Source of the DNA: Halothiobacillus sp.
GTDB taxonomy: Bacteria > Pseudomonadota > Gammaproteobacteria > JAAZVP01
NCBI GenBank assembly: GCA_018623495.1
Contig: JAAZVP010000001.1
Span: 55,991 to 119,990 of the forward strand
Direction: 5' to 3'
DNA: 64,000 bases
Part shown: piece by piece, positions 4,258 to 41,967 of the stretch
Numbering within the stretch: position 1 is the first letter of the stretch
Layout: each line of letters begins with the position of its first letter
Notes under the pieces: model-generated
What the model was told of the DNA's origin: nothing
Seen by the model: the letters and a program-made list of their open reading frames with translations, nothing else
Database searches by the model: none
Made by a program: the position numbers and the translations under genes

Positions 4258-4342
4258 GCCCGGGTGGTGGAATCGGTAGACACACCGAACTTAAAATTCG
4301 GAGGCGCAAGCCGTGCGGGTTCAAGTCCCGCCCCGGGCACCA
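4258..4342 (+). tRNA. tRNA-Leu, anticodon TAA, type II with long variable arm, encoded CCA
   Basis: 7-bp acceptor stem GCCCGGG/CCCGGGC. Anticodon stem CCGAA/TTCGG with loop CTTAAAA. Variable-arm hairpin GGC..GCC. T-arm GCGGG-TTCAAGT-CCCGC. Ends ACCA. Coordinates ±1. Confidence 0.85.
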
Positions 4343-36031: not shown

Positions 36032-36811
36032 ATGACCGACTACCAGCCGTACCTGGACAAGGCCGTGGAGGCCGCCCGCGCCGCCGAAGCGGTGATCCGC
36101 CACTACTACGAGGGCAACGTGGCGGTGGAGATGAAGGCCGATCGCACGCCGGTCACCGTCGCCGACGTGGAATCGGAGAAGGCCATCCACGCGGTCCTGG
36201 AGGCGGCCTTCCCCGAACACGGCTTCTTCGGCGAGGAGACCGGCAAGAGCAACCCGGATGCCGAGTTCACCTGGCTGGTGGATCCCATCGACGGGACCAA
36301 GGGCTTCGTCCGCCAGTACCCGGTGTTCTCCACCCAGATCGCGCTGATGCACGGCTCCGAGCTGGTGGTGGGGGTCTCCAACGCCCCGCTCTACAACGGC
36401 GGCGAGCTGGCCTGTGCCTGCAAGGGCGGCGGGGCCTCCCTCAACGGCGTCCCCATCCGGGTGAGCGGGAACGAGGCGCTGGAGGACGTGGCCCTGTCCA
36501 CCGGCAACATCGCCACGCTGGCGGGCTCGGATGCCTGGGCGGGGCTGGGCCGGCTGTGCCGGCGGGTCAACCGTACTCGCGGCTACGGCGACTTCCTCCA
36601 CTATCACCTGCTGGCCTCGGGCAAGATCGAGCTGATCGTGGAATCCGACGTCAACATCCTCGACATCGCCGCGCTGGCGGTGATCGTGCGCGAGGCCGGG
36701 GGCGTGTTCACCGATCTCCACGGCGGCGAGCTGGATCTCGACACCACCGACGTGCTGGCCGCCAACAGCCCGGCGGTCTACGACCGCGCCCGCGAGCTGC
36801 TCTTCGGCTGA
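36032..36811 (+). CDS. Inositol monophosphatase-family phosphatase (SuhB/HisN-like)
   Basis: Metal-binding motifs FGEETG, WLVDPIDGTKGF and the C-terminal WDIAA-like LDIAALAVIV. 259 aa. Confidence 0.75.
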   Translation: MTDYQPYLDKAVEAARAAEAVIRHYYEGNVAVEMKADRTPVTVADVESEKAIHAVLEAAFPEHGFFGEETGKSNPDAEFTWLVDPIDGTKGFVRQYPVFSTQIALMHGSELVVGVSNAPLYNGGELACACKGGGASLNGVPIRVSGNEALEDVALSTGNIATLAGSDAWAGLGRLCRRVNRTRGYGDFLHYHLLASGKIELIVESDVNILDIAALAVIVREAGGVFTDLHGGELDLDTTDVLAANSPAVYDRARELLFG

Positions 36812-37686
36812 TCCGCCGGCTCGTCGGCCCCGTCCCGCAGCATGTCGATCATCGCCCGGCTGGCGTTGGACAGCGTCCGCCGGGCGTGATGGACCACGCC
36901 CAGCCGGCGGCGCATCGCCACGCCCGCGACCCGGATTTCCTCCACCCCGTCGCCGAGCATGGTCCTCGGCAGCGCGCTCCAGCCCAGGCCCGCGGCCACC
37001 ATGGTGCGGATGGTCTCCAGGTAGTGGGTCTCGATCAGCACGTCCAGGCCGGCCGCCCCGGTGGTCGCTTCGATGATCTCGCGGGTATAGGTGCCGGCGG
37101 CGGGCAGGATGGCGCTGAAGCCGGCGAGGTCGGCCACCGCCGGCCATTCCCGGGCGGCGAGCGGGTGGTCGGTGGCGGCGACGATCACCAGCGGATCCTC
37201 CCACAGGGGCTGGACCTGCAGGTTGCCAGGGGGCTCCGGGGGCAGGGTGATCACGCCCAGTTCGAAATCGCCCCGTTCCACCGCCTCGCGGGCCCGTTCC
37301 GAGCCCATGAAATCCAGGTCGAGGCGCACCTCGGGGTAGGTCTTGTGAAAGCGGCGCAGGGTATCGGGCATGCGCCGCAGGCCGATGTGGTGCGAGGTGA
37401 CCAGGGGCAGGGCACCGCGTACCGTGCCACGGAGATTGTCGATCGCCCGGCGTCCCTCGCGCATGTCGGCGAGCACCCTGCGGGCCAGCGGCTCCAGGGT
37501 GCGGCCGGCCTCGGTGAGCACCACGCGTCGTCCCAGGCGATCGAAGAGCCGGGCGCCCAGCTCGCCTTCCAGCGCCGCCACCCGCTTGCTCACCGCCGGT
37601 TGGGTGAGGTGGATGCGTTCGCCGGCGCGGGAGAACGAGCCGGTCTCGGCAACGGCGACGAAGGCAGCGAGATCCTGGACATCCAT
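36778..37686 (-). CDS. LysR-family transcriptional regulator, divergent from leuC
   Basis: N-terminal HTH LAAFVAVAETGSFSRAGERIHLTQPAVSKRVAALE. LysR substrate-binding domain. Confidence 0.85.
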   Translation of the reverse strand: MDVQDLAAFVAVAETGSFSRAGERIHLTQPAVSKRVAALEGELGARLFDRLGRRVVLTEAGRTLEPLARRVLADMREGRRAIDNLRGTVRGALPLVTSHHIGLRRMPDTLRRFHKTYPEVRLDLDFMGSERAREAVERGDFELGVITLPPEPPGNLQVQPLWEDPLVIVAATDHPLAAREWPAVADLAGFSAILPAAGTYTREIIEATTGAAGLDVLIETHYLETIRTMVAAGLGWSALPRTMLGDGVEEIRVAGVAMRRRLGVVHHARRTLSNASRAMIDMLRDGADEPADQPKSSSRARS

Positions 37687-37784
37687 CTATTCCCTCCTGG
37701 AATGAAAATAATGACAACAATGAATTGGTGTTATTATAAAACCCCTTCTAGACTGTTTCCATGAATCGGTCACGGGAGGCTCCA

Positions 37785-39188
37785 ATGGCAGGCAAGACCC
37801 TCTACGACAAGCTCTGGGACGCGCACGTGGTGCGCACCGAGGACGACGGCACGGCGTTGCTCTACATCGACCGCCAGCTGGTCCACGAGGTGACCAGCCC
37901 GCAGGCCTTCGAGGGATTGCGCCTGGCCGGGCGCCAGCCCTGGCGGCGGGACGCGGTGCTGGCCACCGCCGACCACAACGTGCCCACCACCGACCGCAGC
38001 AAGGGGATCGCCGACCCGGTGTCGCGCATCCAGGTGGAGACACTGGACCGCAACTGCAACGAGTTCCGGATCCAGGAATTCGGCATGGCCGATCGCCGCC
38101 AGGGGATCGTCCACGTGGTGGGCCCGGAGGAGGGCTTCACCCTGCCGGGGATGACCGTGGTCTGCGGGGACTCGCACACCTCCACCCACGGCGCGCTGGG
38201 GGCGTTGGCCTTCGGCATCGGCACCTCCGAGGTGGAGCACGTGCTGGCCACCCAGACGTTGTTGCAGAAGAAGTCGCGTTCCATGCTGGTGCGCGTCGAC
38301 GGCGAGCTGGGCAAGGGCGTGACCGCCAAGGACGTGGTGCTCGCCATCATCGGCGAGATCGGCACTGCCGGTGGCACCGGCTACGCCATCGAGTTCGGGG
38401 GCGACGTCCTGCGCCAGCTCTCCGTCGAGGGCCGCATGACGGTCTGCAACATGGCCATCGAGGCCGGCGCCCGGGCGGGCATGGTGGCCGTGGACGACAA
38501 GACCATCGACTACGTCCGCGGCCGGCCCTTCGCCCCCCGGGGCGAGCACTGGGAGGCGGCCGTGGAGGCCTGGCGGGACCTGCACAGCGACCCGGACGCC
38601 CGGTTCGACCGCACGGTGGTGCTCGACGGTTCGCGCATCGAGCCCACGGTGAGCTGGGGGACCTCCCCGGAGATGGTGGCCCCGGTGGGCGAGCGGGTGC
38701 CCGACCCGGACGCCGAGAGCGACCCGGTCAAGGCCGAGGGCATGCGCAAGGCGCTGGCCTACATGGGGCTCGAGCCGGGCACGCCGATCACCGAGATCCG
38801 TCCCGACCGGGTGTTCATCGGCTCGTGCACGAATTCGCGCATCGAGGACCTCCGGGCGGCCGCCGAGGTGGTCCGCGGCCACCACGTGGATCCCGGCCTC
38901 AAGCAGGCCATGGTGGTGCCGGGCTCCGGGCTGGTGAAGCAGCAGGCCGAGCAGGAGGGGCTCGACCGGGTCTTCACCGAGGCCGGCTTCGAGTGGCGCG
39001 AGCCCGGCTGTTCCATGTGCCTGGCGATGAACGCCGACCGGCTGGAGCCGGGCGAACGCTGCGCCTCCACCTCGAACCGCAACTTCGAGGGCCGCCAGGG
39101 GCAGGGCGGTCGCACGCACCTGGTGAGCCCCGCGATGGCGGCCGCGTCGGCCATCGCCGGCCACTTCACCGACGTCCGCGCGTTGTGA
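37785..39188 (+). CDS. leuC: 3-isopropylmalate dehydratase large subunit
   Basis: [16 protein letters not shown]... Aconitase-family Fe-S cysteines ([16 protein letters not shown]). Confidence 0.93.
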
Positions 39189-39198
39189 GGCGGCGGGC

Positions 39199-39333
39199 AT
39201 GAAGACCATCAGCGCGGCAACACGGGTCCTCGCCCTGTTCCTGGGCGGCTGCAGCACCATGGAAGGGCTCGGCCAGGACATCGAGACACTGGGCGGGACG
39301 ATCGAAGACAAGGCACGCGAGGCGAAGGATTGA
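39199..39333 (+). CDS. Entericidin A/B-family small lipoprotein (44 aa), absent from the ORF track
   Basis: GAGG ribosome-binding site 9 nt upstream. [44 protein letters not shown]: lipobox LGGC followed by the entericidin core G(L/V)GxDIxxxGxxI. Packed between the leuC stop and the leuD start. Confidence 0.65.
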
Positions 39334-39335
39334 CC

Positions 39336-39986
39336 ATGGAACCATTCAAGCGCATGAGCGGCATCGTGGCCCCGTTGGACCGCTCCAACGTGGATACCGA
39401 CGCCATCATCCCCAAGCAGTTTCTCAAGTCGGTCAAGCGCACCGGCTTCGGCCCCAACGCCTTCGACGACTGGCGCTACCTGGATGCCGGCGGGCCCGGC
39501 ATGGACAACAGCCAGCGGCGCAAGAACCCGGATTTCGTGCTCAACCAGGCCCCGTTCGACCGGGCCACCATCCTGCTGGCCCGGGAGAACTTCGGCTGCG
39601 GCTCCTCCCGCGAGCACGCCGTCTGGGCGCTCACCGACTTCGGCTTCCGGGTGGTGATCGCGCCGAGTTTCGCCGACATCTTCTTCAACAACAGCTTCAA
39701 GAACGGCCTGTTGCCCGTTGTTCTGCCGGAAGACCAGGTCGAGGCGCTCTTCCAGGCGGTGCGGGCCGAGCCGGGACTGGAGCTGACCGTGGATCTCGCC
39801 GAGCAGGTGGTGATCCGGCCGGACGGGGAGCGCCTGGGCTTCGACGTCGATTCCTTCCGCAAGCATTGCCTGCTCGAAGGCCTCGACGACATCGGGCTGA
39901 CCCTCCAGCACGCCGACGAGATCCGCGCCTACGAAAAGCGGCGCCGCGAGGAGGCGCCCTGGTTGTTCGAAGGAAGGGGGGCATGA
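39336..39986 (+). CDS. leuD: 3-isopropylmalate dehydratase small subunit
   Basis: [30 protein letters not shown]...[14 protein letters not shown]. The track's TTG start at 39330 is rejected in favour of the ATG. Confidence 0.92.
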
Positions 39987-40855
39987 CCATGAAAAGGACC
40001 GCGATCACACTGCTCGCCTGCCTGGCCGCGGGGGCCGGGCAGGCCGTTGCCGGCAACACCGAGACCGCCTGGACGACCGGCGGGTTCGAACAGCCCGAGT
40101 CGGTACTGGCCGACCCGGTGCGCCGCGAGCTCTACGTCTCCAACGTCGCCGGCGTGCCCGACGAGAAGGACGGGCGCGGTTTCATCTCGCGCATGAGCGA
40201 GGACGGCCGGGTGCTGGAGCGCGAATGGGTCGATGGCCTGAACGCCCCGAAGGGCATGGCCCTGTTCCGCGGGCGGCTCTATGTCAGCGACATCGACCGG
40301 CTGGTGGTGATCGACGTGGCCGACGGGGCGATCGTCGCCGAGTACCCGGCCCCCGGCGCCCGGTTTCTCAATGACGTCACCGTGGACGACGCCGGGCGGG
40401 TCTACTGCTCGGACATGATGGCCAATACCCTCTACCGGCTGGCGGACGGCGAGTTCGCCGTCTGGATGCGCGATCCCGCGCTGCTCTCGCCCAACGGCCT
40501 GCTGGCCGAGGGCGAGCGGCTGGTGGCCGGCGCCTGGGGCCGGCGCAGCGAGGGTTTCGCCACCGAGCACCCCGGCTACCTGCAGTCCGTGCCACTGGAC
40601 GGGGGCGCCGTCCAGCCGCTGGGCGAGGGCAGGCCGGCGGCCCATGTCGACGGCATCGTCAGCGACGGCGGCGACGGCTATTTCGTCACCGACTGGAAGG
40701 CCGGCAAGCTCTTCCATGCCGATGCCCGCGGCGAACTCACGCTGGTGGAGACCCTGGAACCGGGCAGCGCCGATCTCGGCCGCCTGCCGGTGCAGGGAAC
40801 GCTGCTGGTGCCACTGATGCAGAGCGGCCAGGTCGTGGCCCTCGATCCCGAGTGA
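39983..40855 (+). CDS. Secreted hypothetical β-propeller protein (SMP-30/gluconolactonase/LRE-like repeats)
   Basis: Signal peptide [21 protein letters not shown]. Repeated blade-like segments (..LYVSDI.., ..VYCSDM.., ..YFVTDW..). Confidence 0.55.
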
Positions 40856-40881: not shown

Positions 40882-41967
40882 ATGAGCAAAAAGATACTGG
40901 TTATGCCCGGTGACGGGATCGGGCCCGAGATCGTCGCCGAGGCCCGCAAGGTCCTGGATTTCCTGGCCGCCGAGCGGGGCCTGGACGTGGTGATCGACGA
41001 GGCCCCCATCGGCGGTGCGGGCCATGACGCCGCCGGCCACCCGCTGCCCGAGGCCACCCTGGAAAAGGCCCGGGCGGCCGACGCCCTGCTGCTGGGCGCG
41101 GTGGGTGGCCCCCGCTACGAGAAACTGGAGCGCCACCTGCGCCCCGAGCGGGGCCTGCTGGGCATCCGCGCGGAGCTCGAGCTGTTCGCCAACCTGCGCC
41201 CCGCCATCCTCTATCCCCAGCTGGCCGGGGCCTCCACCCTGCGCGCCGAGGTGGTGGCCGGGCTGGACGTGATGATCGTGCGTGAACTCACCGGCGGTAT
41301 CTACTTCGGCCAGCCGCGGGGCATCGAGACGCTCGCAGACGGTCAGCGCAAGGGCTTCAATACCCTGGTCTATACCGAGGCCGAGATCGAGCGCATCGGC
41401 CGCTCGGCCTTCGAGACCGCGGCCAAGCGCGGCGGCCGGCTCTGCTCGGTGGACAAGGCCAACGTGCTCGAGGTCTCCGAGCTCTGGCGCGAGGTGATGG
41501 AGCGACTCGCGCCGGAGTACCCGGACGTCGAGCTCTCGCACATGTACGTGGACAATGCCGCCATGCAGCTGGTGCGCGATCCCCGCCAGTTCGACGTGAT
41601 CGTCACCACCAACCTGTTCGGCGACATCCTCTCGGATGCCGCGGCCATGCTCACCGGTTCCATCGGCATGCTGCCCTCGGCGTCGCTGAACGCCTCCGGG
41701 CAAGGCATGTACGAGCCCATCCACGGTTCGGCACCCGATATCGCCGGCCAGGGCAAGGCCAATCCGCTGGCCACGGTCCTGTCGGTGGCGATGATGTTGC
41801 GTTACAGTCTGTCCCAATCGGCCATGGCCGACGCCATCGAGGCCGCCGTCGGGCAGGTCCTGGATCGCGGACTGCGCACGCCCGACATCGCGGCCGAGGG
41901 CGAGGCGACCGTGGGCACCGCCGCCATGGGCGATGCCGTGGTCGAGGCCCTCGCGGCGTCGGACTGA
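40882..41967 (+). CDS. leuB: 3-isopropylmalate dehydrogenase
   Basis: [27 protein letters not shown] motif. Confidence 0.93.

Follow-up and report, generated by a model that had tools for sequence, protein, structure and literature searches.

The 44-codon open reading frame lodged between leuC and leuD in the window (i.e. the whole stretch of 64,000 nucleotides that was analysed) is, as judged by homology, codon-position composition and conservation across genomes, a genuine conserved gene and a member of the entericidin family; on these same grounds the reading of it as a chance ORF was rejected. We consider it likely that the gene encodes an entericidin A/B-family pre-lipoprotein and that it forms an integral, co-transcribed part of a leuC-ecn-leuD-orf290-leuB operon. 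Its product is most likely a small helical lipoprotein of the envelope, whose translation, like its transcription, would be coupled to that of the leu genes. The finding, though correct, is unremarkable: since the family (PF08085) is known, the arrangement appears in reference annotations, and the exact protein has been called and Pfam-labelled in public databases, the gene was already known.

The gene (39199..39333 including the stop, plus strand; supported by the ORF list, PF08085, an HMM of slot peptides and public gene calls) starts with an ATG at 39199, ends with a TGA at 39331-39333 and specifies a product of 44 aa. The leuC stop (TGA, 39186-39188) is separated from this ATG by 10 nt (the start codon thus begins at the 11th nt past the stop), and a GAGG Shine-Dalgarno sequence (39187..39190, plus strand) overlaps the leuC stop and lies 8 nt 5' of the start codon. 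At the other end, two nucleotides (CC) stand between the stop and the leuD ATG at 39336, and the AAGGA Shine-Dalgarno sequence of leuD (39325..39329, plus strand) falls within the final codons of the small gene, with 6 nt between it and the start of leuD. On rereading the sequence, we found the position, the ATG, the GAGG, the TGA, both junctions and the 44-aa translation exactly as the earlier note had given them. The length of the ORF is by itself uninformative, since 42 ORFs of at least 30 aa overlap the 5-kb stretch around it (70.5% GC). Its codon-position pattern (GC3 0.82 > GC1 0.60 > GC2 0.47) is of the coding type and is displayed by the proposed frame only; the GC3 value lies at the low edge of that of 45-codon windows of the neighbouring genes (0.92 +/- 0.04, minimum 0.80). 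An Rfam scan of the region returned no RNA element.

The assignment to the entericidins, originally made from the letters of the peptide, was borne out by a profile search, in which the Pfam family PF08085 (Entericidin EcnA/B) matched at 28.3 bits against a gathering cutoff of 23.3 (E = 1.6e-6), with residues 20-39 aligned to profile positions 1-20 of 20. This entericidin core (39256..39315, plus strand) thus spans all 20 positions of the profile and overlaps a helix modelled by AF2 over residues 22-43. A query-free profile (built from 28 leuC-leuD spacer peptides of other genomes, the window peptide being excluded) recovered the small ORF at 41.1 bits (E = 4.6e-12), the runner-up among the window's 887 six-frame segments reaching E = 1.5. 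The peptide carries the family core (Cys-x-Thr-x-x-Gly-x-Gly-x-Asp-[IVL]-x-x-x-Gly) and, with its 44 aa, has the pre-protein size typical of the family (~40-60 aa). Aligned with its 8 closest homologues, the peptide shows no variation at C18, T20, G23, G25, D27 and G32 (for Cys18 this holds in the 9 closest), and across the 38 slot peptides C18, T20, G23 and G32 are each kept in 90% or more. An exhaustive phmmer search with the 44-aa peptide yielded 38 hits, the top two of which (P0002 and P0003) were rejected as spurious, both being long repetitive proteins. A word-index search with the same peptide returned only the peptide itself, which is too short for shared 5-mers.

The earlier note had also called the gene unannotated, a status that stems from the 60-aa display floor of the six-frame track available to its reader and not from the public record. 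NCBI, ENA and Logan all contain a protein identical to the window peptide (P0001), for which the PF08085 match is precomputed; the ENA and Logan assemblies in which gene callers placed it come from the same organism. On two assemblies (L001 and L002) it is called between Aconitase and Aconitase_C genes, with synteny as in the window, and the L001 assembly represents the same genome as the window (3 mismatches in 12,135 nt). The 60-aa floor of the track thus misses a real gene that is known to standard gene callers and to Pfam.

The surroundings of the gene are those of a leucine biosynthesis operon (order: LysR on the minus strand, leuC, small ORF, leuD, 290-aa ORF, leuB, asd, fimV). The names leuC and leuD, already given to the flanking genes, held on profile comparison: leuC, encoding the large subunit of 3-isopropylmalate dehydratase (37785..39188, plus strand), matched NCBIfam NF004016 at 811 bits and Pfam Aconitase at 599 bits, and leuD, encoding the small subunit (39336..39986, plus strand; also a public gene call), matched NCBIfam NF002458 at 315 bits. 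For the start of leuC we adopted the public gene call (L001 4587-5990; adding 33198 gives the window positions); the frame is open from an ATG farther upstream, at 37761, as well. Upstream of leuC lies a divergent LysR-family gene (36778..37686, minus strand; Pfam HTH_1 and LysR_substrate, L001 gene call), whose product probably regulates the leu operon; a promoter-like site for the minus strand was seen at 37761-37733. Between leuD and leuB (3-isopropylmalate dehydrogenase; 40882..41967, plus strand; Pfam Iso_dh 450 bits, gene call) a second passenger gene is found, a called ORF of 290 aa with an N-terminal signal-like sequence (39983..40855, plus strand), which overlaps the leuD stop by 4 nt and shows sub-threshold Pfam matches only (SGL and PQQ_2); no homologue of it was detected in 80 related leu loci. 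A scan for promoter-like and terminator-like sites between leuC and leuD, with an E. coli-type consensus that may not suit DNA of 70% GC, detected none. The small ORF hence shares the features by which we delimited leu-operon-embedded entericidin-like lipoproteins, an annotation-level group and not a curated family (i.e. location on the same strand in the leuC-leuD spacer, a spacer free of promoter-like and terminator-like sites, and a close junction with leuD).

To the earlier note this location had seemed an odd one, a view that did not survive comparison with other genomes. Using LeuD alone as query (and thus blind to the peptide), we collected 80 loci, out of more than 592 matching ones, from contigs representing one genome per species. 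In 78 of them leuC lies directly upstream of leuD, with a spacer of at most 60 nt in 33 loci and a longer one in 45. An ORF for a lipoprotein with the motif C-x(2-6)-G-x-G-x-D occupies the slot in 27 of these 78 loci, and in 7 further ones the slot HMM still matches a small lipoprotein there that has diverged or been expanded by repeats. When all the aligned spacer peptides were considered (the window's own included), 27 of 38 matched PF08085. According to their labels, the carriers account for 23 of 38 betaproteobacterial and 4 of 35 gammaproteobacterial loci, proportions to be read with the caveat that some 'Gammaproteobacteria' labels of MAGs may follow GTDB usage and so hide betaproteobacteria. 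They include members of Methylophilaceae, Gallionellaceae, Rhodocyclaceae/Zoogloeaceae (Thauera), Sulfuricellaceae, Comamonadaceae-type Burkholderiales and Neisseriaceae, together with several unclassified gammaproteobacterial MAGs. In Snodgrassella (L058) the slot harbours two tandem entericidin copies, which resemble an ecnAB pair. In Guyparkeria and Halothiobacillus, the closest relatives as judged by LeuD (76-78% identity), the spacers measure 12-14 nt and the gene is absent, which implies that it is dispensable for leuCD function. It is likewise absent in Pseudomonas and in Acinetobacter baumannii, and in Acinetobacter baylyi a gap in the locus numbers of leuC and leuD (ACIAD0463 and ACIAD0466) suggested an insert. 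Placement in the leuC-leuD slot is common in related bacteria, yet not universal.

The same arrangement is named in reference annotations of Burkholderia. In B. ambifaria, WP_011658379.1 carries the PGAP name 'entericidin A/B family lipoprotein' and lies 64 nt upstream of leuD, and in B. arboris the order leuC, 48-aa ecn ORF, leuD was confirmed on the sequence. The Burkholderia cepacia complex thus resembles the window in having a same-strand entericidin-family gene between leuC and leuD, followed by leuB. It differs in the details of the peptide (48 aa, a long signal peptide, LAG↓C, Asn at +2 and a charge of -1, as against LGG↓C, Ser at +2 and -4 in the window) and in the distance to leuD (the gene ends ~64-67 nt before leuD in Burkholderia and 2 nt before it in the window). 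In B. cenocepacia J2315 the slot gene is annotated as BCAM0983A, and it has been reported to be induced jointly with leuC1 and leuD1 (BCAM0983, BCAM0983A and BCAM0984 by 2.9-, 2.0- and 2.1-fold, respectively). The frequency of the leuC-ecn-leuD order and its coupling appear to have gone undiscussed, as the papers in the searchable library that contain both entericidin and isopropylmalate do so in table rows or passing text; we regard its recurrence as a modest comparative-genomics observation and not as a surprise.

The geometry of the slot recurs together with the gene. Of 28 slot ORFs, 14 have a stop that overlaps or abuts the leuD ATG (TAATG, TGATG, TAAATG), and in 20 the two are at most 8 nt apart; at the 5' junction most loci show a gap of 8-52 nt, often with a recognisable Shine-Dalgarno sequence. 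The junctions in the window (10 nt with GAGG upstream, 2 nt downstream) fit this pattern. Such tight stop-start junctions, in the window as in most homologues, could suggest that the ORF matters above all in cis, carrying ribosomes from leuC to leuD as a translated bridge, and that its peptide has little or no function; the position of the leuD Shine-Dalgarno sequence inside the 3' end of the ORF, and the fact that other genomes have small genes in the slot that are unrelated or have diverged strongly, agree with such a role. The codons of the mature peptide point the other way. Within nine valid pairs of close slot genes (the pair L031/L067 was left out, as it fell out of register in the ungapped comparison), pS ranged from 0.17 to ~1.1, pN from 0 to 0.10 and pN/pS from ~0 to 0.28, the pair L050 and L059 reaching a pS of 0.85 at a pN of 0. 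By this measure the slot homologues are under clear purifying selection on the mature peptide. Moreover, the C-x-T-x-x-G-x-G-x-D...G core is conserved across classes, the family is also kept as free-standing genes in many contexts, and where the insert is missing the two leu genes are coupled to each other directly, across spacers of -4 to 25 nt, which makes a bridge unnecessary. We hence hold it very improbable that the ORF serves chiefly as a bridge, and favour its reading as a gene for a functional lipoprotein.

The extent to which the family occurs outside the leu operon was apparent from a second, peptide-selected sample of 74 loci (69 from a metagenome scan seeded with a 3-sequence alignment, plus 5 contigs bearing the closest peptide hits), which is biased by its two search patterns. 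Within it, 61 of the 74 loci lie outside a leu context and 7 between leuC and leuD, the rest consisting of 2 that are cut by a contig end beside leuD and 4 that have one of the two flanks only. Free-standing copies were found on chromids of Burkholderia, Ralstonia, Cupriavidus and Azospirillum. The first B. cenocepacia peptide hit (L083) was rejected as a candidate for BCAM0983A, being a free-standing paralogue. The two peptides most similar to that of the window, P0006 and P0010 (52-57% identity, the value varying with the alignment), are both free-standing and have acidic tails of the type ...LGDTIEDEAEEE, and P0009, another close homologue, sits in a leu-type slot. As the closest peptides are mostly free-standing, the slot gene need not have been inherited vertically in the lineage of the window.

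The layout of the predicted product is that of a lipoprotein, i.e. a signal peptide followed by Cys, in agreement with the signal and LGGC lipobox proposed before, albeit with a short core and an atypical lipobox. The predicted signal peptide covers residues 1-17 (39199..39249, plus strand; family alignment, property table and AF2 helix 6-15), and the TGC codon of Cys18 (39250..39252, plus strand; alignment) specifies the residue of the LGG↓C lipobox to which the lipid is predicted to be attached. Cys18 is aligned to the lipobox Cys of the family, and Lys2 and Arg9 precede the hydrophobic stretch. Arg9 breaks the classical PROSITE PS00013 lipoprotein pattern, as judged by a hand check, and among the peptides compared this signal peptide is the weakest. 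In comparison to the 28 slot homologues, the window peptide is an outlier in several respects: its uncharged core before the Cys counts 8 residues (after Arg9) against 12-17; a lipobox with Gly at -2 is seen in none of the 28; the net charge of the mature peptide is -4 against a range of -2 to +2 (median +1); and its helical hydrophobic moment (0.53) is near the low end of their range (0.50-0.79). Furthermore, Ser is found at +2, a position at which Asn occupies 23 of 29 slot peptides (the window's included). The short core, the atypical lipobox, the Ser at +2 and the charge lower our confidence in efficient export.

These same traits (the shortest hydrophobic core of the set, LGG↓C, Ser in place of a near-universal Asn, and the outlying charge) would also be expected if the product were made without being an exported lipoprotein, its signal having degenerated in a gene that is decaying or has been repurposed for a small cytoplasmic or inner-membrane peptide. 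The GC3 below that of the neighbours, and the close LeuD relatives that lost or never had the gene, fit such a course of events. Set against this, the ORF is intact and preceded by a good Shine-Dalgarno sequence, it has kept the Cys and the entire entericidin core, and LGG↓C recurs in independent, free-standing homologues (P0006, P0013, P0016 and P0039). A core of 8 residues (here VLALFLGG, after Lys2 and Arg9) is also compatible with the lengths known from lipoprotein signal peptides. We regard loss of export as quite improbable, and continue with the exported lipoprotein as the preferred reading. The AF2 model (single sequence) places helices at residues 6-15 (signal) and 22-43 (mature peptide), with pLDDT block means of 71-88 over the mature part and an overall mean of 75. 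A profile search of the PDB matched signal peptides alone and found no solved structure of any family member.

On this basis we propose that the small ORF would be co-transcribed with leuCD and would initiate independently at its own GAGG, and that its 17-residue signal peptide may direct the product to Sec export. In general lipoprotein biogenesis, Sec export is followed by processing through Lgt, LspA and Lnt and by sorting through Lol; the pre-protein would accordingly pass to these three enzymes for lipidation, with cleavage at Cys18. Because the +2 residue is Ser and not Asp, the resulting 27-residue product would probably be sorted to the outer membrane through the Lol pathway. There it may reside on the membrane surface as a single lipid-anchored, weakly amphipathic and strongly acidic helix. 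Ribosomes that end on the small ORF would re-initiate on leuD, and such termination-reinitiation coupling would explain why an insert between two subunit genes is tolerated. The level of the product would track the expression of the leu operon.

The name of the family invites a different view of its function, as the earlier note had implied by speaking of toxin/antitoxin-like peptides. The annotation of E. coli K-12 lists ecnA as 'antidote' and ecnB as 'bacteriolytic', both in tandem beside efp (b4410 and b4411), and the products (EcnA 41 aa, EcnB 48 aa) share with the window peptide the Pfam family, a similar size, and a signal peptide with a lipobox Cys. Their core (C-N-T-x-R-G-x-G-E-D-I...G) aligns with the window peptide, which in BLASTP, run against the verified E. 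coli sequences, is 41% identical to EcnB and 36% to EcnA. Were the window gene a bacteriolytic toxin of the EcnB type, or an antidote of the EcnA type, in a toxin/antitoxin-type module, its tie to the leu operon would let a lack of leucine set off membrane damage or a programmed lysis of the cell. Besides membership in PF08085, this identity and the E. coli annotation, the co-induction with leuCD in B. cenocepacia and the tandem pair in the slot of Snodgrassella could be cited in favour of such a role. The window, though, holds one gene inside leuCD where E. coli has two (lysin and antidote) beside efp: neither the HMM nor a regex search detected a second entericidin copy among the 887 six-frame segments of the 64 kb, and the single copy thus stands without a partner there, outside any two-gene locus of the ecnAB type. 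Both NCBIfam equivalog models are failed widely, with 21.2 bits for EcnB (NF007487) against a cutoff of 94 and 19.9 bits for EcnA (NF007319) against 86, and since the peptide is equidistant from EcnA and EcnB, neither role can be assigned to it. It is also more acidic than the E. coli entericidins; a charge of -4 and an amphipathicity that is low for the family would poorly suit the lysis of anionic membranes, and the outlying core, lipobox, +2 residue, charge and hydrophobic moment taken together argue against a membrane-lytic role. Finally, a lysin that is of necessity translated along with an essential biosynthetic operon would presumably be costly.

Experimental work on other members of the family points away from lysis as well. 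Atu8019 of A. tumefaciens, an orphan EcnB-like lipoprotein and the one orphan homologue with biochemical tests in the literature consulted, is surface-exposed and associated with OMVs, and is non-lytic both in cells and on liposomes. Like the window peptide, it is an entericidin-family lipoprotein without an EcnA partner, and its mature peptide has ~30 residues; it differs in being alphaproteobacterial and in not being reported in a leu operon, and the two are likened by description and not by sequence. We consider Atu8019 the best functional analogy for the window peptide. In Moraxella catarrhalis (ecnAB, MCR_1029) and Xanthomonas citri, which have entericidin-family genes outside Enterobacteriaceae (a two-gene locus in Xanthomonas), the phenotypes of ecnAB mutants concern adherence in the former and biofilm, EPS and H2O2 tolerance in the latter, and not lysis. 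A toxin or antidote role for the window gene is in our view unlikely. By analogy with Atu8019, its product would most likely act as a small envelope/OMV lipoprotein, a role that is better supported than that of a lysin, each being reached by reasoning from sequence and from related systems. The 'toxin' label that propagates through annotations is unjustified for orphan members such as this one.

A further-reaching possibility, which we hold to be improbable, is that the leuCD-embedded entericidin-like lipoproteins constitute a conserved functional module and do not merely hitchhike. If so, LeuD could be made only when the small ORF is translated, its lipopeptide would tie branched-chain amino-acid synthesis (through leucine limitation and LysR control) to a property of the envelope, such as permeability or the behaviour of the outer membrane or of vesicles, and the leuC-leuD junction would represent a selected docking site for small exported proteins in Beta- and Gammaproteobacteria. 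What the lipoproteins of the entericidin family do is as yet little understood, and the arrangement described here, carried by about a third of the sampled LeuD-selected beta- and gammaproteobacterial loci, offers a clean natural system in which to ask whether these peptides are tied to leucine limitation or are tolerated passengers of the leu operon.

The leu operon of the window carries, besides the entericidin-like lipoprotein gene (ecn, 39199-39333, + strand), a second and lineage-specific passenger: a 290-aa ORF located between leuD and leuB (39983-40855, + strand; 4-nt overlap with the leuD stop), whose product, judging by a signal-like sequence at its N-terminus, is probably exported. 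Its Pfam matches (SGL/gluconolactonase-like and PQQ_2) were all sub-threshold, and no homologue of it was found among the 80 related leu loci selected by LeuD similarity. Downstream, leuB is followed by asd and then by a FimV-like gene (41967-64000 in the window; 8807-12135 in L001, another assembly of this genome); since this is the leuB-asd-fimV order known from Pseudomonas, the backbone synteny of the window is typical for Gammaproteobacteria. The only Rfam match above the gathering score in the whole window was a single tRNA gene (4258-4339, + strand). A 713-aa antisense ORF (37770-39911, - strand) that covers leuC, ecn and leuD was rejected as a gene, together with many other long, out-of-frame overlapping ORFs, as the usual artefacts of a 70% GC sequence.

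The small genes residing in the leuC-leuD spacer (hereafter slot genes) of other genomes were found to occur in tandem as well as in extended forms. Within the leu operon of Snodgrassella communis (L058), the spacer harbors two consecutive entericidin-like lipoprotein ORFs (2651-2776 and 2795-2935), which resemble an ecnA/ecnB pair. In Azonexus and related genomes (L028, L035, L036 and L076) the slot gene encodes a 71-72-aa lipoprotein with an entericidin-like beginning (ACNTAEGVKKD...) followed by 3-4 KKGGEAV-type repeats, while in Sideroxydans and Gallionella (L041 and L047) the slot holds secreted, non-lipoprotein versions of this repeat (91-100 aa). The slot proteins of these six loci matched no Pfam family above threshold, and seem to have arisen from the slot gene through repeat expansion. 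Furthermore, three metagenome contigs (L133, L164 and L118) possess slot-resident variants of ~110 aa, in which an N-terminal entericidin-like core (CNAARGLGQDIENLGLL...) is succeeded by a long Pro/Val/Glu-rich tail with YPYPYP; the L133 variant was scanned against Pfam and gave no match.

Two public proteins (P0004, 116 aa; P0005, 73 aa) contain two entericidin units per ORF, each being a fusion of tandem copies or else the product of read-through in gene calling. The free-standing acidic entericidin-like genes closest to that of the window (P0006, in contigs L092 and L093; P0010, in L091) adjoin other very small genes (including an Alanine_zipper (Lpp-like) lipoprotein, unnamed 53-57-aa ORFs and PRC-barrel proteins), which hints at clusters of small envelope proteins.

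The leuC-leuD junction was also found to accommodate other genes. In a betaproteobacterial MAG (L043, 2508-2979) the 498-nt spacer contains a weak HicA-like ORF followed by a HicB-like antitoxin (PF15919 and UPF0150, both above cutoff), an insert that constitutes a bona fide toxin-antitoxin pair. Larger inserts are present in Saezia sanguinis (L030, 1637-2759: an entericidin-like gene and a periplasmic Cu/Zn superoxide dismutase) and in L069 (1650-2997: a secreted PEBP-family protein and an unassigned second ORF of ~220 aa). Taken together with the other slot cases, these two inserts suggest that small exported or accessory genes have repeatedly landed at the leuC-leuD junction.
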